In this document: one piece after another, positions 1-8,313 of the stretch | How the letters are laid out: every line of letters begins with the position of its first letter | Numbering within the stretch: position 1 is the first letter of the stretch | DNA from: an uncultured Bacilli bacterium | GTDB taxonomy: Bacteria; Bacillota_I; Bacilli_A; RF39; UBA660 | Reading direction: 5' to 3' | Length of the DNA: 32,000 nucleotides | NCBI GenBank assembly: GCA_947632565.1 | Contig: CANRPT010000001.1 | Location: 1-32,000, forward strand | The notes under the pieces: model-generated | What the model saw: the letters and a program-made list of their open reading frames with translations, nothing else | What the model was told of the DNA's origin: nothing | Databases searched by the model: none | Position numbers and translations under genes: made by a program

Positions 1-335
1 TGTTGATTTTGCTGTGAATTGGATTGTTCTTGACCTTGTTCTTCATTTTGAATTTCAGAATTTTGTCCTTGTGATTGGTTTTTATTTTGTTTTTGAGAAT
101 TTTCTGAAGAACTTTGTCCTTGACTTTGCTGCTCTTGTTCAGAAGATGATGAGCCTTGTTGATTTTGCTGTGAATTGGATTGTTCTTGACCTTGTTCTTC
201 ATTTTGAATTTCAGAATTTTGTCCTTGTGATTGATTTTCATTTTGTTTTTGAGAATCTTCTGAAGAATTTTGTCCTTGACTTTGTTGCTTTTGTTCAGAA
301 GATGATGAGCCTTGTTGATTTTGTTGATTACTCTT
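1..335. repeat. Tandem direct repeat with a 156-bp unit (52 codons, in frame with the minus-strand CDS). There are two full copies (1-156, 157-312) and a short diverging third copy; the array may continue left of the window.
   Basis: I aligned the copies by hand: 150/156 positions are identical. All 6 differences fall in unit positions 78-130, and the first 77 nt are identical. The encoded unit is approximately QGSSSSEQ(K/E)QQSQGQ(N/S)SSE(D/N)SQKQN(E/K)NQSQGQNSEIQNEEQGQEQSNSQQNQ. Confidence 0.9.
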
Positions 336-755
336 CCGATTTTGCCCTTGGCTTTGGTGTTTTTCTTTCAGTAATTTATCATATAATTGTTCTGCATCGT
401 AATTTATTGCTTCTGCAATATCTACGACTCCTTCAACAAGTTTCAAACCATCTCGTTTTAAAAATTGATTTATAACACCATCTGTTGCTGTATTCCAAAC
501 ATCAGGATCTTTACCTTCACTTCTTCTTATATGGTCGAAAGCTATATGACATACTTCGTGAGCAAATGTAAAAGTTTGCTCATCTGGTTTCAGTTTTTTT
601 AAAAAATCCGGATTATAATATATTGTTTGTCCATCAGTACCTGCTACTGCTGGTATTTCTTTATTCTCTTTATAGTTTACATTTGCGACTACACTTCCAA
701 AGAAAGGATATTTTACAAGCATTTTTCTTTTTATAGATTCAATATTAAAGCTCAT
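1..755 (-). CDS. Partial CDS (first 251 codons; the 3' end lies beyond the left window edge). It encodes an HExxH putative metallopeptidase domain (DUF2201_N-like) followed by a Gln/Ser/Asn/Glu-rich low-complexity region.
   Basis: It is absent from the ORF track because it stays open to the window edge. My minus-strand translation from ATG 755..753 reads MSFNIESIKRKMLVKYPFFGSVVANVNYKENKEIPAVAGTDGQTIYYNPDFLKKLKPDEQTFTFAHEVCHIAFDHIRRSEGKDPDVWNTATDGVINQFLKRDGLKLVEGVVDIAEAINYDAEQLYDKLLKEKHQSQGQNRKSNQQNQQGSSSSEQKQQSQGQNSSEDSQKQN... An SD (GAGGA) lies 7 nt upstream. The HEVCH motif, the downstream H/R residues and the WNxAxDxxIN pattern match my memory of the DUF2201_N family, which normally precedes a VWA-like domain and neighbours AAA_5 ATPases. 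Confidence 0.7.
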   Translation of the reverse strand, partial: MSFNIESIKRKMLVKYPFFGSVVANVNYKENKEIPAVAGTDGQTIYYNPDFLKKLKPDEQTFTFAHEVCHIAFDHIRRSEGKDPDVWNTATDGVINQFLKRDGLKLVEGVVDIAEAINYDAEQLYDKLLKEKHQSQGQNRKSNQQNQQGSSSSEQKQQSQGQNSSEDSQKQNENQSQGQNSEIQNEEQGQEQSNSQQNQQGSSSSEQEQQSQGQSSSENSQKQNKNQSQGQNSEIQNEEQGQEQSNSQQNQ

Positions 756-765
756 AATTTATTCC

Positions 766-1161
766 TCAAATATGAGCAACTAATGAATAAATTTCTTCAT
801 TAATTGTTTCTTTACTTATATTTTTAGCAGTTAAAATGATTCTTGTATTTTCTGGTATTTTAAATGTAGAAACTTGTCTATATTCTAATAATTCTTTGAA
901 TTTTAATTGTTCTTCTTTAGAGATGCTATCAATATCCTTTATAACAATTATTTTAGCTTCATTTGTATTCGTTAAATCATAATACCATTTAGGAGCTAGG
1001 AAATCTTCTTTCTCATAATGACCGTTCAATTCTTTTACTTCACAATTTGCTGGTATTATTATAGATTCTGGAATATTGATATTTGATGCAAAATCTATAA
1101 GAACGGGAGTAACATTAACTGAAATATAGCTTTTTAACATATTCATTTTATCATTATTCAT
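766..1161 (-). CDS. 131-aa protein: a P-loop-less, probably catalytically dead paralog of the AAA+ core of the upstream ATPase.
   Basis: Listed ORF. Its ATG overlaps the ATPase stop (ATGA at 1161..1158), and an SD (GGAGGT) lies 8 nt upstream. The segment KIIVIKDIDSISKEEQLKFKELLEYRQVSTFKIPENTRIILTAKNI aligns by eye with LHIVFFDEITNALPSIQGMAFNIILDREVNGMWQLPENARTVAAGNE of the 626-aa protein. There is no GxxxxGK[ST] motif, and Walker B DE is replaced by KD. Confidence 0.75.
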   Translation of the reverse strand: MNNDKMNMLKSYISVNVTPVLIDFASNINIPESIIIPANCEVKELNGHYEKEDFLAPKWYYDLTNTNEAKIIVIKDIDSISKEEQLKFKELLEYRQVSTFKIPENTRIILTAKNISKETINEEIYSLVAHI

Positions 1162-3038
1162 ATTTTTCTACCTCCTAAATTTGCAAGTCTAGCTTCAGCA
1201 ATTAATTCTAATCTAGATTCATCACCATGTGCCCATAGCGAATCAAATATTGCTCCAAACTCCGCTCCTAGATTAGTTACGAAACTTCTTACTTTCTCCA
1301 TATTTTCTTCATCCACTTGAGAAAGCCCCATTGTCGTAGCATATCTTTGGGCAGTATTTAATGATTGTATATCTCTTTCACTATAATATCCATTTATTAC
1401 ATCATCTAATGTTATAACTCGTTGCTTGCAGAATTCTACAAATTCTCTAGTTATATCTTCTCCTACTAAAGCCCTTAACATTTCTGGACTTCCAGTAGCA
1501 TAAAGCATTTTTGATGCCATTTCCCATTTTCTTGGATCGGCATTTGGCTTTTCTCCATCATATTTGCTTCTTAATGTTTCACCATTTTTATAAGCTATAT
1601 AGGAATAAATTGCAGGATGGATATTATGTTCACTTGCCCATTTTAGCCATCCTTCTGTTGTTGTTTTGATATAAACATGAGCAAATCTATTAAATAATGG
1701 TTCAGCTAATTGATTTGCTGATAAAGAATCTTTCATTTCATTTCCGGCAGCGACAGTTCTTGCATTTTCTGGTAATTGCCACATTCCATTTACTTCTCTA
1801 TCTAAAATAATATTAAAGGCCATTCCTTGAATACTAGGCAAAGCATTTGTTATCTCATCAAAGAATACGATATGTAATTTATCTGGTTCCGCTTCACATT
1901 TCGCTTCTAATTTTTTTAACCATGTAGGCTTAACATCAATCATTTCGCCTTTTTCAGAATTATAAACACTTTTACCATTTAAACTTTCAGGTGTTGCATT
2001 TCTCAAATATATAATGACGCTACCGGGGTCAATTTGTTTTACTCTTGCACTTTTTCCTTCACTTGATGCACCATGTAAAAACACAGCTATTCCACTTTCA
2101 ATGGCACCTTTTATAATTTCTTCTTCACTGACTGACTTAAAATTCAATCCATAAGGATTTCTTCTTTTTTTAGCTCCTTTTTGTTTTTCTTCAAAAGCTT
2201 TTTCTTCTGGTGTCACTTGAAGAATTGTGCTTGGTACTATATCTCTTGCAAAATAAGTATTTAAGAAATGATACATCTCTGTATTTTTAAAATTGCCAGC
2301 ATAATTATAATCATTACAAAATCTTAATCCCGATGCAATCAAATTTTTACTTAACATAATTCTAGCATCATTATCAACATACCATTTAAGAGGAGATACT
2401 TCTATCCAAACATTATCTCCATATTTATATTGTTTTCCGTTTGAAAGTATATAGATATTTGTATTTCTATAATATGCTCTTATACATTTTCTTCCATTAT
2501 ATTCATATTCTTCATGTTCTACAGCTTTAAATGGAGAATAATTCTCGTTCCATTTTCTAGAATCCGTTGTATATGTTTTTCCAGTTTTTCTTATAGTACC
2601 AGAAAGATATGCTTGTTCTAATTCAGATTCCATAGATGTACTAACAACATATTGTGGATATTCTCCATACTCTACTTCAAGAAATCCATTCCTTTCCCCC
2701 ACTACGTTCGGGGAGATATCAGAGATAGTAGAGAACGGTAAGGCTGGGCGAACTCCGCCTGACCTCTTACCAACACTAGCACATTCACTATTACCTTCAT
2801 AAGTAACAGTACGGATATCCCCAGCGTCATCAGAGGATGATAAATAATACCACCCCGTACGACCTTTTAAAGAATTATCATAATCTACATGATAATCATC
2901 AGAAACATAAGCTCCCAACAATATAGCAAAATCTGTTATTGCACACATTTCACCAATATTACTTATTAAATCAATTCTATCACTACCAAAAACTTGGTCT
3001 TCATCAAGTAATGTGAATTTTTTCATATCAAAATTCAT
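1158..3038 (-). CDS. 626-aa fusion protein. It has an N-terminal ~285-aa beta-rich module (DUF6273-like GVRPAL motif), a basic linker, a MoxR/AAA_5-like AAA+ ATPase core and a C-terminal helical region.
   Basis: Listed ORF 1158..3050. I prefer ATG 3038 (MNFDMKKF...) because the SD GAGGTG sits at 3047..3042. Walker A is HGASSEGKS (nt ~2049-2075), Walker B is IVFFDEIT, sensor-1 is VAAGNE, followed by LFNRF. The N-terminal part contains GWYYLSSSDDAGDIRTVTYEGNSECASVGKRSGGVRPALPF and WIEVSPLKWYVDNDARIMLSKNLIASGLRF. Confidence 0.8.
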   Translation of the reverse strand: MNFDMKKFTLLDEDQVFGSDRIDLISNIGEMCAITDFAILLGAYVSDDYHVDYDNSLKGRTGWYYLSSSDDAGDIRTVTYEGNSECASVGKRSGGVRPALPFSTISDISPNVVGERNGFLEVEYGEYPQYVVSTSMESELEQAYLSGTIRKTGKTYTTDSRKWNENYSPFKAVEHEEYEYNGRKCIRAYYRNTNIYILSNGKQYKYGDNVWIEVSPLKWYVDNDARIMLSKNLIASGLRFCNDYNYAGNFKNTEMYHFLNTYFARDIVPSTILQVTPEEKAFEEKQKGAKKRRNPYGLNFKSVSEEEIIKGAIESGIAVFLHGASSEGKSARVKQIDPGSVIIYLRNATPESLNGKSVYNSEKGEMIDVKPTWLKKLEAKCEAEPDKLHIVFFDEITNALPSIQGMAFNIILDREVNGMWQLPENARTVAAGNEMKDSLSANQLAEPLFNRFAHVYIKTTTEGWLKWASEHNIHPAIYSYIAYKNGETLRSKYDGEKPNADPRKWEMASKMLYATGSPEMLRALVGEDITREFVEFCKQRVITLDDVINGYYSERDIQSLNTAQRYATTMGLSQVDEENMEKVRSFVTNLGAEFGAIFDSLWAHGDESRLELIAEARLANLGGRKI

Positions 3039-3058
3039 ATTGCACCTCATTCACATGT

Positions 3059-3067
3059 ATTTTACCA
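3059..3067 (-). promoter_or_regulatory. Possible extended -10 promoter (TGgTAAAAT) for the three-gene operon.
   Basis: The minus strand reads ...cttaTGgTAAAATacatgtgaatGAGGTGcaatATG. There is no good -35, and the implied leader is very short. Confidence 0.3.
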
Positions 3068-3230
3068 TAAGTATACAAAAAATAGTATAGATTTACGAAA
3101 TAATGCAAAATTGTTAAAAGAAAAAGTAGATTGTGTTCAAAGACAAAAAAGTGAAATTTAGTCTTACAATTTCTATTTATGTATATTTTATGAAATTTAA
3201 CTTTTCATTTGAGCATTATTATGAATTTAT

Positions 3231-3261
3231 AATAAAAGAGAACTTAATAATGAAGTTCTCT
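3231..3261 (-). terminator. Intrinsic terminator of the rpsF-ssb-rpsR operon.
   Basis: The minus strand reads TAA GAGAACTT cattatt AAGTTCTC TTTTATTAT: an 8-bp stem, 7-nt loop and T-rich tail immediately after the rpsR stop. Confidence 0.75.
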
Positions 3262-3476
3262 TACTTTGTATAAGGTAATAAAGCAATTGCACGAGCACGT
3301 TTGATTTGTTCTGCAATATGTCTTTGATGTTTTGCACATGCTCCTGTAATTCTTCTTGGTAAAATTTTACCTTTATCATTAATATATCTTTTTAAAGTTT
3401 CTACATCTTTATAATTGATATCTTTTCCAGTACACATGTAACATACTTTTTTCTTTTTCTTAAAAAATTCTGCCAT
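3261..3476 (-). CDS. rpsR: 30S ribosomal protein S18.
   Basis: 71 aa. The sequence ...[58 protein letters not shown] is unmistakably S18, and the rpsF-ssb-rpsR synteny supports it. Confidence 0.97.
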
Positions 3477-3493
3477 TTTCTTTTCCTCCTTCT

Positions 3494-3976
3494 TTAGAAT
3501 GGTAATTCATCATCACTAATCTCAATAGAAGATCCGAAATCTGCAAATGGATCATTTGATACATCTGTTGTTGGAGTTGTTTGTGTATCTGCAAAATCAT
3601 ATGGGGTTGGATTATCATTGGTAGATGGTTGACTTCCATTACTTCCACCATTATTGCTTCCTTTTGTACCTAAAAATTGTACATTATCGGCAATTACTTC
3701 TGTTACATATCTTTTTTGTCCATCTTGTCCATCATAACTTCTGGTTTGAATATGTCCATCTATTGCTACTTGACTACCTTTTGAAAGATAATTTTTTACA
3801 TTTTCTGCCTGTTTTCTCCAAACAACAATATTAATAAAATCTGCTTCTCTTTCTCCATTTTGATTCGTAAATGTTCTATCTACTGCTAAACTAAATGATG
3901 CTGATGGGATATTACTACTTGTATATCTTAATTCTGGGTCTCTTGTTAATCTTCCGATTAAAAATACTTTATTCAT
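3494..3976 (-). CDS. ssb: Single-stranded DNA-binding protein.
   Basis: 160 aa. It has the OB-fold N-terminus [19 protein letters not shown], a Gly/Asn/Ser/Pro-rich linker and the acidic C-terminal tip DDELPF. Confidence 0.97.
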
Positions 3977-3989
3977 TTTATTACCTCTC

Positions 3990-4280
3990 TTACTTATCTA
4001 CTCTTACTATTAAATGACGAAGAATATTTTCATTAATTAATGCTAAACGATCAAATTCCTTTGTAGCATTTAAATCTTCGGTTTCTATAGTAAATAAGAA
4101 ATAATAACCTGTCTTATATTTATTAATTTCATAAGCTAAGTCTTTTTGTCCCATCTCTTTTAATTCTAATACGTTCGCATGATTGTTTTCTAAGGCTGTC
4201 TTCATATCTTCTGCTACTTGTTTCATTGTTTGTTCTTCTACATCAGGTTTTACGATGAACATAATTTCATATTTTCTCAT
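3990..4280 (-). CDS. rpsF: 30S ribosomal protein S6.
   Basis: 96 aa, MRKYEIMFIVKPDV..., in the conserved position upstream of ssb. The SD is AAAGGAGGTG. Confidence 0.95.
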   Translation of the reverse strand: MRKYEIMFIVKPDVEEQTMKQVAEDMKTALENNHANVLELKEMGQKDLAYEINKYKTGYYFLFTIETEDLNATKEFDRLALINENILRHLIVRVDK

Positions 4281-4312
4281 TTTCTACACCTCCTTTTGGT
4301 CATTGGCTATTG

Positions 4313-4342
4313 CTAGCAAGGAGTATATTTCATACTCGCTAG
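4313..4342 (-). promoter_or_regulatory. Structured hairpin in the rpsF 5' leader, a candidate autoregulatory element.
   Basis: The minus strand reads CTAGC GAGTAT gaaa ATACTC ctt GCTAG: 6+5 bp with a 3-nt bulge, ~30 nt upstream of the SD. A possible promoter lies just upstream (TTTACA, 17 nt, TATATT; -10 at 4344..4349). Confidence 0.35.
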
Positions 4343-4351
4343 TAATATAGC

Positions 4352-4385
4352 AAAAAAAAAGCATTTTGTAAATGCTTTTTTTATT
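4352..4385 (-). terminator. Intrinsic terminator after the Zn-dehydrogenase gene.
   Basis: The stem is GCATTT/AAATGC, extended by flanking A9 and T9 runs. On the minus strand it is followed by a 9-T tract. Confidence 0.75.
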
Positions 4386-4387
4386 TT

Positions 4388-5413
4388 TTATCGTTTTGGA
4401 TCCACCAATATTTTGACGGCAGAGTCTGTTCCGGATGTTAATCTTTCGTAAGAAGCTTGCACTTGTTCTAATCCAACAATATCATCTACAAATTTGGTTA
4501 CTTCTACTTGTTTAGTTGCGATTAAATCAATACAAGTCTTAAATTCTTCTTTCGTATAACCGATTGCTCCTAATACTTTTAGTTCTTTCATGACAGCCAT
4601 TACGGTATAAATCGAGATATCTTTAGTAGAAACTCCTACTAATACAATTGTTCCTCCTGGTCTTACTAGGGTAAGGGAACTGTTTACTGCTGGAGCATTT
4701 CCTACACATTCAATTACGACATCAAATCCTCCGTTTGTTTTCTCTAAAAGGGTTGGAACGGTATTTTGATCTTTGGCATCATACCATTCATCAGCGATTC
4801 CTAGCGATACAGATTTTTTTCCTCTTTCTGGATTCGTTTCTGTTAAAATAACAGAGCTTGCTCCCTCTTTTTTCGCAAACATGGCAGATACTAATCCAAT
4901 AATTCCTCCACCAATTACTAATACTTTTGCTCCTACTTTAATATCGGCTAAGTGAATTGCATGAAGTCCTACCGCAGTTGGTTCTACCATGGCTCCTTCT
5001 TCAAAAGATACTGTATCTGGTAATTTTAATACCATATCTTGTCTTACTTTTATTTTTTTGGATAATCCTCCTGGATAATCCATCGATAATCCTACTGCAT
5101 GAGTCCAAGTATCCTTACAGTATTGAATATTTCCTGTTTCACAACTATCACATTCTAAGCAAGGAGAAATTGGTAATCCCGTTACTCGATCTCCTACTTG
5201 TAAATCTGTTCTTGTTCCAGGGTGAATTACTGTACCACTAAATTCATGACCCATAATTAATCCAACTGGTTCTCCATTTTCCCAGTAATGAATATCGGAA
5301 CCACAAATTCCACACTTTTCTACTTCAATTAATACATCTTTTTCACTTGGAGTTGGTTCTTCTACCTCTTTGATTTCAAATTCTCTAACTCCTTTGATTG
5401 CTACACTTTTCAT
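4388..5413 (-). CDS. Zinc-dependent medium-chain alcohol/polyol dehydrogenase (sorbitol / threonine / butanediol dehydrogenase-like).
   Basis: 341 aa. It has the catalytic-zinc motifs CGICGSDIHYW and GHEFSGTV, the structural-zinc Cys cluster CLECDSCETGNIQYC and the Rossmann motif VIGGGIIG. Confidence 0.88.
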   Translation of the reverse strand: MKSVAIKGVREFEIKEVEEPTPSEKDVLIEVEKCGICGSDIHYWENGEPVGLIMGHEFSGTVIHPGTRTDLQVGDRVTGLPISPCLECDSCETGNIQYCKDTWTHAVGLSMDYPGGLSKKIKVRQDMVLKLPDTVSFEEGAMVEPTAVGLHAIHLADIKVGAKVLVIGGGIIGLVSAMFAKKEGASSVILTETNPERGKKSVSLGIADEWYDAKDQNTVPTLLEKTNGGFDVVIECVGNAPAVNSSLTLVRPGGTIVLVGVSTKDISIYTVMAVMKELKVLGAIGYTKEEFKTCIDLIATKQVEVTKFVDDIVGLEQVQASYERLTSGTDSAVKILVDPKR

Positions 5414-5497: not shown

Positions 5498-7531
5498 TTA
5501 CTTTTGATTATAAATAATTAATTGATGTTGTGCTCTGGTACAGGCTACATAATAGAGGTATTTTTCTTCTTCTTGATATCTATTTTCTAAATCTGTATAA
5601 ATGATGACTGAATCGAATTCTAATCCTTTTGCCGTATAGGCGGGTACGACAATTAAATCTCTGTTAAATTTTTCGGTATTACTTTCTAATAAGCTTAATT
5701 CTTTTATCTCTGGTTTTAATAATTCATAAAGTTTTACTGCTTCTTGATCGGTTTTGGTAATCAATGCAATTGATTTATATTTTTCTTTTAATTGTTTGAT
5801 ATCTTTTTCCAAATTTTCCTTTAAATTATGATGATCTCGGAATAAAACAGGAACATTGTTTTCTTTTCGAATTGCTGTGATGTGTTTTAAATTTAAGATT
5901 TGATTGGTATAGGCAATAATCTCTTGACTAGAACGGTAAGTTTTGGTTAGTTCTAGATATCTGGTATCTTCTGGAAAGATTTCTTTTAATTCTTGTAAGG
6001 ATTCATATTTATAGTATGGATTAATTGTTTGATTAACATCTCCTAAAATCGTAAAAGAAGCATTTTTAAAGATTTCTTTGATAACCAAATACTGTAGCTT
6101 ACTATAATCTTGTGCTTCATCAATTACGATTTGTTTAATACTTCCACGATAAGAAAATCCTTCTAATAATCCTTTTAAATAGATAAATAAACAAGCATCT
6201 TCATATAGAAGTTCTTTCGTATTGATAAAACCATTGATTTCACTATCCGATAAAGGATCCGGATAGTGTTCTTGAAAAAATTTACTATGATAAAAATTTT
6301 TATAGATTTCTTTGAAATCTCTTTTTTGGTTTAATCTGTGATAAAGATCTGCTATGATTTTTTTATAATTTTTGTGTTTTCCATCATAATACGTATTACA
6401 AATTTTATCCGCAATCACAGGAAAGATTTCACAAAACTTTAAATGATTATATCTTTCATGAAGAAAATAATTTAATTCTTCCTTCGTATAAGTAAAATCT
6501 CTTGTTTCATAATCTTCTATAAATCTTACTTCTTTGATCCAAGATTCTATATAATTTTTCATATCTAAAATTGCTTGATTACTTTGTTTATAGGCTGTTA
6601 ATTTTTTGTTTTTATTTTCTTTTTTATAATATCTTTCGATAAATTTGGTGAATTCTTCTACTTTTCGAAATTCTATAATATTACTTTCTAAAAAACCATC
6701 AAAAGTAGTTTGGAGGGTATTATCTTCTCCTAGTTCTGGTAAAACATTCGAGATATATTCTGAAAAAACTTTATTCGGAGAAAAGATTAAAACGTTATTG
6801 GAAGATAGATTTTTGATTTTATACAGTAAGAATGCAATTCGATGAAGAGCAACACTTGTTTTTCCACTACCTGCTATTCCTTGTACAATTAAATTTTTAT
6901 CTTCCGTATTACGAATGACATGATTCTGTTCTTGTTGAATCGTATTTACGATATTTTTCATTTTATCATTGGATTCTTCTAATAATACTTGCTGTAATAC
7001 TTCATCATCGATATTCAAATTGGTATCAAAAATCCCTTGCATTTTTCCATCTTTGATTTGGAATTGCCTTTTTAAACTTAAATTTCCAGATACGATTCCA
7101 TCTGGTGATTCATAACTAGCTGGTCCTACTTCATAATCATAGAAAAGACTGCAAATAGGACTTCTCCAATCATGAATGAGATATTCTAAGTCATCTTCTA
7201 CATGCGTAATTCCAATATAAATTTCTTCTTTTCCTACCTGGTCTTCAAAAATAATTTTTGCGAAATAGGGATTGTTTTGAATGCGAAATAAAGTTTGAAA
7301 GTATTTGCTTTTTCGTTCCATTTGTATTACTTCGCTATCCGATTCTGCCATCATGAAACGCATTTCTGCAGGATCCATATCTTGTTTAGAATCCCAAATT
7401 AGTTCTTTGAATTCTTGAATTTTCTCTTCTTTGTCATAAAATTCTTGTCCTAATTCTGATATTTTATTTCGTATCACTTGAATGGTTCGCTCTAGATGTT
7501 TTTCTTCTAGTTGTTCTTCTTCTTTTTTCAT
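5498..7531 (-). CDS. helD: UvrD-like superfamily-1 helicase of the HelD type (RNA polymerase-associated recycling factor).
   Basis: 677 aa. It has a charged, helical N-terminus, Walker A QGIAGSGKTSVALHRIAFLLY, motifs VIDEAQDY and TKTYRSSQEI, and the C-terminal KGLEFDSVIIY ... YYVACTRAQHQL. Confidence 0.75.
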   Translation of the reverse strand: MKKEEEQLEEKHLERTIQVIRNKISELGQEFYDKEEKIQEFKELIWDSKQDMDPAEMRFMMAESDSEVIQMERKSKYFQTLFRIQNNPYFAKIIFEDQVGKEEIYIGITHVEDDLEYLIHDWRSPICSLFYDYEVGPASYESPDGIVSGNLSLKRQFQIKDGKMQGIFDTNLNIDDEVLQQVLLEESNDKMKNIVNTIQQEQNHVIRNTEDKNLIVQGIAGSGKTSVALHRIAFLLYKIKNLSSNNVLIFSPNKVFSEYISNVLPELGEDNTLQTTFDGFLESNIIEFRKVEEFTKFIERYYKKENKNKKLTAYKQSNQAILDMKNYIESWIKEVRFIEDYETRDFTYTKEELNYFLHERYNHLKFCEIFPVIADKICNTYYDGKHKNYKKIIADLYHRLNQKRDFKEIYKNFYHSKFFQEHYPDPLSDSEINGFINTKELLYEDACLFIYLKGLLEGFSYRGSIKQIVIDEAQDYSKLQYLVIKEIFKNASFTILGDVNQTINPYYKYESLQELKEIFPEDTRYLELTKTYRSSQEIIAYTNQILNLKHITAIRKENNVPVLFRDHHNLKENLEKDIKQLKEKYKSIALITKTDQEAVKLYELLKPEIKELSLLESNTEKFNRDLIVVPAYTAKGLEFDSVIIYTDLENRYQEEEKYLYYVACTRAQHQLIIYNQK

Positions 7532-7680: not shown

Positions 7681-8313
7681 ACTCTTTCCAAATAATCTTA
7701 ATAAATCGATAAAGATATTAATAAAATCTAAATATAATTCAAATGCTCCCAGTACTGCTAAATTATCTTCGGCAAGGTATCCATTTAATCGTTTTATTTT
7801 TTGAATATCATAAGCAATAAATCCTAAAAATACGATAATACTAATGCTAGAAATGATGATATCAAACGTATCATTCTTTAGAAAAATATTTATGATACCA
7901 CAAATAATTACTCCAAATAATATCATTACTAGATAAATCCCAATTTTTCCTAAATCAATTTTTGTGAAATGACCAATCAGAGCAAAAATGAGAAATAAAA
8001 TTGCGGTTATTAAGAATACAAAAAGGATTGACTCTAATTGATAGACAATAAATAGTGAGGAAAACGTTAATCCACTCAAAAAGGTATATGCTAAATAACA
8101 GATTTTGGCAGTCGTTGGTTTCATTTTATGAATTCTAACGGAAAAGAAAATGGCTAATCCAATTTCTATAATCGCTAAAATCCAACAAAATCCATTCGCA
8201 TAAATCATTTCTAATGCATCTTGATTTGTTGTAGTATAGAATCCCGTTAAAAATGTTACTAGTAATCCAATAAATAACCAAAGAAATACTTTGGAATAAA
8301 TTTTATTTTCCAT
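7672..8313 (-). CDS. Bax-inhibitor-1/YccA family integral membrane protein.
   Basis: 213 aa with about 7 hydrophobic segments. The start MENKIYSKVFLWLFIGLLVTFLTGFY and the overall layout are typical of the BI-1 family. Confidence 0.75.
   Translation of the reverse strand: MENKIYSKVFLWLFIGLLVTFLTGFYTTTNQDALEMIYANGFCWILAIIEIGLAIFFSVRIHKMKPTTAKICYLAYTFLSGLTFSSLFIVYQLESILFVFLITAILFLIFALIGHFTKIDLGKIGIYLVMILFGVIICGIINIFLKNDTFDIIISSISIIVFLGFIAYDIQKIKRLNGYLAEDNLAVLGAFELYLDFINIFIDLLRLFGKSDD

Follow-up and report, generated by a model that had tools for sequence, protein, structure and literature searches.

The window analysed here is the whole of a 32,000-nt stretch from an uncultured Bacilli bacterium (contig CANRPT010000001.1 of assembly GCA_947632565.1), and at its 1-3261 end it carries an operon of three genes, which we call A, B and C. 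Analysis of the operon and its relatives revealed that gene A encodes an AAA+ ATPase fused to an N-terminal binding module, that gene B encodes a catalytically dead AAA+ paralog, and that gene C encodes a predicted metallopeptidase tethered to a vWA domain. In many related genomes, the binding module of A was found to be the target of a diversity-generating retroelement (DGR). On balance, and with modest confidence, we favour the reading that the operon encodes a cytoplasmic ligand sensor joined to an AAA+ motor and a vWA-tethered protease, which together serve as a conflict or defence module. Being a DGR target, the A-B-C family is more interesting than was stated in a first-pass annotation of the window; it is also less exotic, as its core is a widespread pair of the phage N4 gene 24/25 type.

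Domain architecture of genes A, B and C

The three genes lie on the minus strand, tightly packed, downstream of the rpsR terminator. The first-pass annotation had described them in this way, and both the open reading frames (ORFs) and their spacing held (Table 1). Gene A was found to consist of an N-terminal beta-rich DUF6273-like module, a basic linker, an AAA+ ATPase and a helical C-terminal region. A search for homologs of A returned 2920 proteins at E<=1e-3, the best 120 of which were full length with identities of 64-100%. In the alignment, the ATPase half was highly conserved throughout the homologs, and the Walker A (GASSEGKS, 2072..2049), Walker B (IVFFDEIT, 1871..1848), sensor-1 (AAGN) and NRF motifs, all present in the 626-aa protein where the annotation had placed them, were invariant or nearly so in 68 homologs. 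Gene A also matched PHROG 1297, annotated as 'ATPase', at 7e-47. In the AlphaFold2 (AF2) model of A, the predicted local distance difference test score (pLDDT) of the ATPase part was 55-84 in the better-modelled stretches and below 50 for residues ~436-539. A Foldseek search against the PDB returned MCM, the MoxR protein 2r44 (5e-7) and NorQ (~3e-6), with low template modelling (TM) scores for this multidomain model, and a search against BFVD returned phage 'gp24-like', dynein-related or MoxR-like ATPases. The model suggests a MoxR-like AAA+ fold for the ATPase of A. Searches for sequence relatives in the PDB with the A family profile, the ATPase half of A, the phage gp24-like protein and the short form of C returned none.

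The N-terminal module of A was modelled with a pLDDT above 90 for residues ~8-270, save one loop, and was far more variable among the homologs than the ATPase half. Some homologs have the module twice, in tandem at the N-terminus or with a further copy appended at the C-terminus. Residues 5-101 of some A homologs matched positions ~77-168 of the 172 in the DUF6273 profile, its C-terminal half; two of these homologs scored above the gathering threshold, and one homolog matched Fib_succ_major. Judged from these profile matches, the N-terminal module is DUF6273-like at the level of the family. It may be a circularly permuted DUF6273, and the later YGEYPQ, W.EVSP.KW and LSK motifs of the module recall what we take to be the N-terminal half of that domain. 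Tandem module duplications were seen in two homologs (P0059 and P0099), which would be the intermediate expected for a circular permutation of DUF6273. DUF6273 itself has been described as a C-type-lectin-like domain and a DGR target (PMC10743442).

Gene B lacks the P-loop, the Walker-B glutamate and the arginine, and no Pfam family was found for it. Profile-profile comparison with hhalign revealed that residues 10-133 of B are collinear with residues 308-455 of A (E 8.8e-5, probability 60%), and the two proteins have several blocks in common, namely LNGH/LNGK, PKW/KPTW, the Walker-B strand, the sensor-1 strand and the final ...AH. The AF2 model of B had a pLDDT of 89, and Foldseek matched it to the AAA+ cores of NorQ, CbbQ, RFC, Lon and sigma-54 activators with TM scores of 0.6-0.69. 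Because of this collinearity and these structural matches, the first-pass annotation was right to read the 131-aa product, whose start overlaps the stop codon of A as ATGA, as a P-loop-less AAA paralog; B is a stand-alone, catalytically dead paralog of the AAA+ core of A. The B-like family comprised 277 representative clusters, and nearly all members were ~120-140 aa among the 150 listed. By analogy, the most likely role of B is as a subunit of the assembly formed by A, either structural or regulatory.

Gene C leaves the window within a Q/S/E-rich repeat, as had been noted, and a near-identical contig from a separate assembly (L001; L numbers denote the contigs and loci compared) supplied the sequence past the window edge. 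In L001, the full gene C (641 aa) is followed by rpmE and rpiB. C matched DUF2201_N at E 5e-37, with 126-128 bits across the window part and the full protein, and this agreed with the annotated HExxH peptidase of the DUF2201_N type that starts after a 10-nt gap. The full protein in L001 matched DUF2201_N (2e-36) and DUF2201 (4e-13, 50 bits), with the peptidase preceding the vWA domain. The vWA domain that the annotation had proposed to look for to the left of the window was thus located in gene C itself, with rpmE next, and no unrelated fusion was present. The peptidase motifs are HEVCH, at 560..546, and WNTATD, and the vWA-like DUF2201 domain in L001 carries a metal ion-dependent adhesion site (MIDAS) of the sequence DTSDS, which we read as DxSxS. 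A large majority of 59 ORFs of the family, among them a phage N4-like gp25 homolog, have kept the HExxH, WNxATD and DxSxS motifs; these ORFs were chosen by the pattern HE..H plus W[ND].A.D, and all 59 thus bear both of these. C is predicted to be a zincin-type metallopeptidase whose tether to the vWA domain is a long, disordered linker. The tandem repeat of the linker was present in ~3.7 copies in L001 (L001:12716-13294; Tandem Repeats Finder). The length of the linker varies widely in relatives, in which C ranges from 393 to 761 aa. On the plus strand, a 153-aa ORF at 14..475 is the antisense of the linker repeat.

Diversification of the binding module in related genomes

Relatives of the block were found at 239 places in a scan of ~185,000 species-level genomes (one genome per species). 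Seventy-five loci were fetched, mostly from metagenome-assembled genomes (MAGs) of gut 'Bacilli' or 'Tenericutes' from rabbit, mouse and human, with a Clostridia branch also present. Clustering of the flanking ORFs revealed that A (75 loci, 103 copies), C (71), B (60), a reverse transcriptase (RT; 19) and an Avd-like gene (15) recur. No other partner gene recurred near the 75 loci, and the remaining neighbours differed from locus to locus. The operon, which had been called self-contained, proved to be so in that only A, B, C, RT and Avd recur.

The RT and Avd genes belong to a DGR. At least 15 of the 75 species-level genomes carry a cassette of Avd, template repeat (TR) and RT directly upstream of A. 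In the locus L079 (= L014), where the A homolog is 65% identical, a bAvd-like gene and an RVT_1 RT lie directly upstream of A. An 80-nt TR (6618-6697) is located between them, and the variable repeat (VR; 8234-8313) corresponds to codons 78-105 of A. The two repeats are 85% identical and all 12 of their 12 mismatches fall at TR adenines, which is the signature of a DGR; in frame, the TR contains six AAY codons, corresponding to ~3e13 theoretical protein variants. Clean or near-clean adenine-biased TR/VR pairs were found in at least 14 species genomes (for example 12/12, 14/14 and 10/10), the others being in L008, L018, L020, L021, L029, L037, L043, L045, L049, L070, L072, L073 and L076. Where pairs of A genes were 98.7-98.9% identical over 1900 nt, their differences lay mostly in nt 246-293, which contained 16 of 20 differences between L020 and L028, 12 of 24 between L020 and L021, and 14 of 28 between L029 and L037. 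Because such near-identical genes differ mostly in this segment, diversification is, or was recently, active in the relatives.

The TR of the relatives corresponds to codons ~76-100 of A, and the same codons of the window gene form what we call the VR-equivalent. This was the most variable stretch of A among the closest relatives; between the window protein and its 89%-identical homolog in L005, 16 of 70 differences fell within aa 70-100. The VR-equivalent is also a local GC peak (0.38-0.39, as compared with ~0.3 elsewhere). It proved homologous to the TRs of 14 relatives, at 47-64% identity, with mismatches at all four bases and no clean adenine bias. A GC-rich hairpin was found just past the VR-equivalent. 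In 40 sequences, 87% of the cells were paired, and changes on both sides of the stem numbered 13 as compared with 4.2 after shuffling (0 of 500 shuffles); one such change, from CCCC/GGGG to CCTC/GAGG, combined a Pro-to-Ser change with a synonymous Arg change. This pattern is no more than suggestive of a DGR target-site element that may have been retained in the window.

The DGR status could be judged in 59 of the 75 loci, as 16 were not assessable, and 'no trace' here refers to at least 2.2 kb upstream of A. An intact Avd and RT were present in 15 loci, a full RT only in two, and RT fragments in eight; no DGR was found in 34. The remnants were 5'-truncated RT fragments with no template repeat. 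A graded series of RT remnants was observed upstream of A in L007, L017, L024, L025, L028, L030, L036, L052 and L060. The retroelement has been lost repeatedly with A-B-C kept. In six loci (L014:5322-5810, L018, L020, L029, L037 and L045), an ORF of 162-177 aa lies just upstream of Avd; no Pfam family was found for the 162-aa ORF, and the gene could be an extra component of the cassette. Five contigs (L004, L005, L011, L026 and L032) end ~150 nt upstream of A, and such breaks would be expected from a repeated element there, either a TR/VR pair or tandem A genes.

B was absent from the Clostridia-type loci, where A (~600 aa) overlaps a short C (~400 aa) that has no long linker. Since these loci hold just A and a short C, the minimal unit is A plus C, and B is an addition in the Bacilli branch. 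A cultured example is Zhenpiania hominis BX12 (L061, NZ_JACRYT010000016.1), in which an A of 602 aa overlaps a C of 399 aa at 2335-5339; B, the long linker and a retroelement are all missing, and an amino-acid permease gene lies upstream. In several loci, A was found in tandem arrays of two to five copies for one or two sets of B and C, which resemble a small receptor repertoire. The A-like genes of L041 start at 4539, 6426, 10161, 12052 and 15844. Tandem arrays were also observed in L002, L004, L013, L038, L044, L046, L047, L048, L054, L069 and L070, and an assembly artefact is possible for L047 and L048, in which the copies are identical.

Proposed function and comparison with known systems

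No hydrophobic segment or signal-like N-terminus was found in A, B or C by a hydropathy scan, and the machine is predicted to be cytoplasmic. By analogy with its clade, A would form a MoxR-type ring, which B may join or cap. C would dock on A through the MIDAS of its vWA domain, a site with which MoxR-type motors usually dock. The N-terminal module of A would bind a specific intracellular protein or glycan ligand, and ATP-driven remodelling by A would then, through the vWA domain, activate the peptidase of C or feed substrate to it, so that proteolysis by C would be the output. A binding surface that is cytoplasmic and hypermutated points to an intracellular ligand that changes fast, and this ligand would most likely be a fast-evolving component of a phage or mobile element. 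A conflict or defence role is favoured because in many relatives a DGR just upstream hypermutates the binding loop, the sensor gene often occurs in tandem copies, and close relatives differ by gain and loss of the block. The finding that the DUF6273-like module is a DGR target in many relatives strengthens the earlier proposal of a sensor that acts on a protease, with the function itself still a putative one.

Several points weigh against the sensor-protease reading. The ATPase of A, which had been placed in the MoxR/AAA_5 clade, appears MoxR-like in structure, but it scored only 14.8 bits against Pfam AAA_5, below the gathering threshold of 22; AAA_5 was likewise weak and sub-threshold in 28 of 68 A homologs, and the phage gp24-like homolog just reached the threshold with 22.1 bits. 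The relation to DUF6273 stands for some homologs, but the A protein of the window itself has no match to the Pfam family, and the lectin fold was not confirmed by structure searches with the full-length model against the PDB and BFVD, in which ATPase matches dominated. A hydropathy scan is the sole basis for the cytoplasmic placement. The flanking genes are housekeeping genes, with no defence island, and the defence suggestion gained nothing from PADLOC-DB 2.0, in which A, B and the window part of C had no significant match; the sole matches (E 0.07-0.9) all came from the low-complexity linker of C. No DGR trace was found in 34 of the 59 judged loci, and none in the window, so that diversification is not required for function. 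Finally, the homologous pair is core to the N4-like phages and also occurs in jumbo phages with a proposed role as a virion-assembly chaperone, and the ancestral activity of the ATPase-peptidase pair may be unrelated to immunity.

A fuller version of the defence reading is offered tentatively, and taken as a whole we find it doubtful. It holds that A-B-C is the receptor-effector arm of an anticipatory intracellular immunity in small-genome gut Firmicutes, and was built by the capture of a phage N4 gene 24/25 module. The lectin-fold receptor, fused straight to the AAA+ motor, would recognise proteins of an invader and trigger the vWA-tethered metalloprotease; a DGR would rewrite it in about a third of lineages, with ~1e13 variants possible, and lineages such as that of the window would have lost the diversifier and kept a 'germline-fixed' receptor.

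The phage relatives bear on an alternative that involves no immunity. The ATPase half of A matched 707 phage records with 23-30% identity (tblastn, to about 1e-16). The N4-like phage Pokken has a DUF2201_N-DUF2201 'putative metallopeptidase' immediately after its gp24-like ATPase, and C matched this gp25-like protein at 2e-14 in an alignment across both domains. On these sequence alignments, the A-C pair is homologous to the phage N4 gene 24/25-type pairs, which are its closest homologs: both partners have homologs, the order is the same (ATPase, then peptidase-vWA), and C has the same two Pfam domains with HExxH, WNxAxD and DxSGS. In contrast, the phage ATPases, at ~350 aa, lack the N-terminal binding module, neither a B-like gene nor a long repeat linker was seen in the phage loci inspected, and the cellular A-B-C family is chromosomal and partly DGR-targeted. 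N4 genes 24 ('unknown') and 25 ('vWFA domain') are among the 14 core N4-like genes and belong to the middle transcripts (PMC4193335), and Iyer et al. (2021) proposed a role in virion assembly or processing for a MoxR and metallopeptidase-vWA pair in jumbo phages (PMC7824862). From this it could be argued that A-B-C is a domesticated chaperone-protease of the N4 24/25 type that assembles, matures or processes a cellular or prophage structure, in which the lectin-like module picks the client and the DGR tunes the choice. The phage matches, the ATPase directly preceding the DUF2201_N-DUF2201 protein in Schitoviridae, the core status of genes 24 and 25, the jumbo-phage proposal and the precedent of NorQD and CbbQO, which are maturation chaperones and include NorQ, a top structural match, are all in its favour. 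We nevertheless consider this explanation, the main rival, unlikely. The block lacks a linked, conserved client gene, and loop hypermutation, tandem sensors and presence/absence polymorphism would be unusual for a dedicated assembly factor. In addition, only a single contig with a close relative was found among the 2.9 million viral contigs of IMG/VR, and there RT-A-B-C borders on prophage tail genes and has host-like genes beside it. The idea that the family as such is phage-borne was rejected on this same count.

The classical MoxR-vWA pairs NorQ-NorD, CbbQ-CbbO and RavA-ViaA resemble A-C in that an AAA+ motor, probably of the same structural clade, stands beside a vWA partner with a MIDAS; NorQ and CbbQ ranked among the best structural matches of A and likewise of B. 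Unlike A-C, these pairs have no fused peptidase or ligand-binding domain, and they mature a defined enzyme encoded nearby; the A-B-C sequences are also too distant for any PDB match, with AAA_5 sub-threshold. In Mg-chelatase, an active AAA+ protein, BchI, acts with BchD, which is composed of an inactive AAA+ module, an acidic or low-complexity linker and a vWA domain with a MIDAS. B followed by C would reproduce this order of inactive AAA+, linker and vWA, which is an analogy only, as the dead AAA+ core is here a separate 131-aa protein and a metallopeptidase domain precedes the linker.

A related logic is found in conflict systems of other bacteria. Kaur et al. (2020) described four vWA-MoxR ternary conflict systems, in which the third component is VMAP, an inactive STAND, FtsH or a beta-propeller (PMC7159879). 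The first-pass annotation had pointed to this link, and a vWA partner is indeed present, but A-B-C is not among the four ternary systems: no third component of the kind (VMAP, iSTAND, FtsH or beta-propeller) was found at the locus by the published definitions (PMC7159879), and the third gene is instead B, the 131-aa dead AAA+ core. According to Dore et al. (2024), DGRs diversify the C-type-lectin domains of putative sensors in such systems of multicellular bacteria (PMC10907252). The A-B-C family has in common with these a hypervariable, DGR-written domain, with a putative lectin fold, in an operon with a MoxR-type ATPase, a vWA protein and a peptidase, a predicted cytoplasmic location, and a presumed logic of sensor, NTPase and effector. 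The construction differs in several respects. The lectin domain there is C-terminal on the vWA or another target and MoxR is a separate gene, whereas the module here is fused N-terminally to the ATPase, with the VR near the 5' end. The peptidase here is a predicted zincin fused to vWA, where those systems have a trypsin or caspase; the family lives in gut Bacilli and Clostridia with small genomes instead of multicellular Proteobacteria or cyanobacteria; and the family adds the dead AAA+ paralog, with the window copy having no DGR. A-B-C shares the DGR-sensor/MoxR/vWA logic but is built differently. DGR targets that combine a C-type lectin (CLec) and an AAA-ATPase are common in candidate phyla radiation (CPR) bacteria and DPANN archaea according to Paul et al. 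(2017), as summarized in PMC10907252. Compared by that description, they resemble A in that a variable domain, with a putative lectin fold in A, is combined with an AAA ATPase in reduced genomes, and in the same summary the CPR/DPANN DGRs form separate RT clades. In the literature that could be searched, no published description of the A-B-C architecture was found, in agreement with the first-pass annotation, which knew of no described system with this exact architecture.

The cellular roles of DGRs in gut bacteria are known mainly from surface adhesins and phage tail fibres, and the A-B-C family bears on the rest. The pair of MoxR-like ATPase and DUF2201 peptidase-vWA is widespread and core to the N4-like phages, and the family bears on its role as well. 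The two are linked here, as the DGR writes into a binding domain that is fused to that ATPase and predicted to be cytoplasmic. The family offers a natural series of DGR-active, DGR-decayed and DGR-free loci and of occupied and empty sites, and the two-gene form of the cultured Z. hominis BX12 could be an experimental handle that makes the sensor hypothesis testable, and likewise the function of the phage pair. If the defence reading is true, the range of hypermutated intracellular sensors would grow beyond multicellular Proteobacteria and cyanobacteria to include gut Firmicutes with reduced genomes, and the vWA-tethered zincin would be a new effector.

Retroelement loss, genomic position and flanking sequences

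RT, Avd and TR were absent from the window and from the 22 kb of L001, as searched with tblastn and blastn. Since the window copy has no DGR, it would be a version of fixed specificity, and the best reading of the window A is a putative fixed-specificity receptor. The same absence, together with the series of truncated RT remnants in relatives, could also be taken to mean that the window operon is a decaying relic whose sensor became useless after the loss of the DGR and whose genes are drifting to pseudogenes. We judge this highly improbable. The three frames are intact with every catalytic motif present, two independent assemblies encode an identical A protein, and the family shows almost no variation in the ATPase half. 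Moreover, the 34 related genomes that keep A-(B)-C with no DGR indicate that the trio works without ongoing diversification.

The genomic position of the block was found to vary. Contexts of rpsR were gathered from contigs that encode exactly the RpsR protein of the window. One of these, L090 (ENA ERZ27249546 NODE_72721), is ~90% identical in DNA and represents an empty site, as rpsR is followed by 47 nt and then the rpmE leader and gene, without the whole 4.5-kb A-B-C block (L001 9779-14289). The homology between the window and L090 stops at the rpsR stop codon (~3261), inside the terminator. In L085, from the MAG of the 89% homolog (L005), rpsR is followed by unrelated DNA with small ORFs and a fragment of an immunoglobulin-like surface protein. 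At the rpsR/rpmE junction there seems to be a hot spot of variable content. Neither gene was close by in most of the 75 loci, and the genomic contexts varied. Because of the empty site and the variable position, the A-B-C block is a chromosomal accessory island at a variable junction and not a housekeeping component of the origin-proximal region.

A housekeeping role of the trio tied to the ribosome or translation, suggested by its place between rpsF-ssb-rpsR and rpmE near the origin, its flank-like composition and two other genomes (L025 and L036, both with RT fragments) with rpsF-ssb-rpsR ~3 kb upstream of A, is effectively refuted by the empty site and the variable positions, with relatives at just 239 places in the genome scan, and was rejected. 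The presence/absence comparison thus bore out the expectation that the block is not universally conserved beside rpsR. None of the outcomes that the first-pass annotation had named as telling against it was seen, be it in the profile searches, in linkage to rpsR or as an unrelated gene fusion.

Coordinates are collected in Table 1. Gene A has an AGGTG ribosome-binding site at 3047..3043, as read from the sequence. An alternative ATG at 3050 would give a protein of 630 aa, and the start at 3038 is favoured because the homologs begin with MNF. The spacer upstream of A lies between the terminator and the gene, as annotated, but its length is ~197 nt and not 170, and the candidate promoter reported there was not recovered by a simple sigma-70 consensus scan of the spacer.

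Table 1. Features of the A-B-C operon and its upstream boundary, in window coordinates
Feature	Position	Strand	Basis or remark
Gene A	3038..1158	-	ORF, 626 aa
N-terminal binding module of A, aa ~1-270	2229..3038	-	AF2 model and alignment
VR-equivalent, A codons ~76-100, ends GVRPAL	2739..2813	-	DIRTVTYEGNSECASVGKRSGGVRPAL; VR of relatives maps there
GC-rich hairpin, 5 bp, ~10-nt loop	2695..2714	-	~35 nt downstream of the VR-equivalent
AAA+ alpha/beta core of A	1659..2126	-	Motifs and Foldseek
Gene B	1161..766	-	ORF, 131 aa; ATG overlaps the TGA of A as ATGA
Gene C, 5' part, 251 of ~641 codons	755..<1	-	ATG 10 nt past the stop of B
Q/S/E/N-rich low-complexity linker of C	1..365	-	156-nt (52-aa) tandem repeat
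AT-rich spacer 5' of gene A	3039..3235	-	Terminator to ATG of A, ~197 nt
Intrinsic terminator of rpsF-ssb-rpsR	3236..3262	-	10-bp stem, then T-run; upstream boundary of the block

Over the 900-nt overlap compared, the window and L001 differed at few bases, all in the repeat of gene C. The base composition of the block was like that of its flanks, and the GC peak at the VR-equivalent was the sole anomaly; a recent foreign insertion was sought by composition, and no other deviation was present. No plasmid match was found for the block and no Rfam family in the window, and an NCBIfam search of the window proteins gave no meaningful match. Beyond the window edge, the rpmE leader contains a conserved inverted repeat, CTATGGCAA...TTTGCCATGG, at L001:14330-14420 and L090:590-640, the relatives compared being 90% identical, and this repeat may be a candidate regulatory element for L31.

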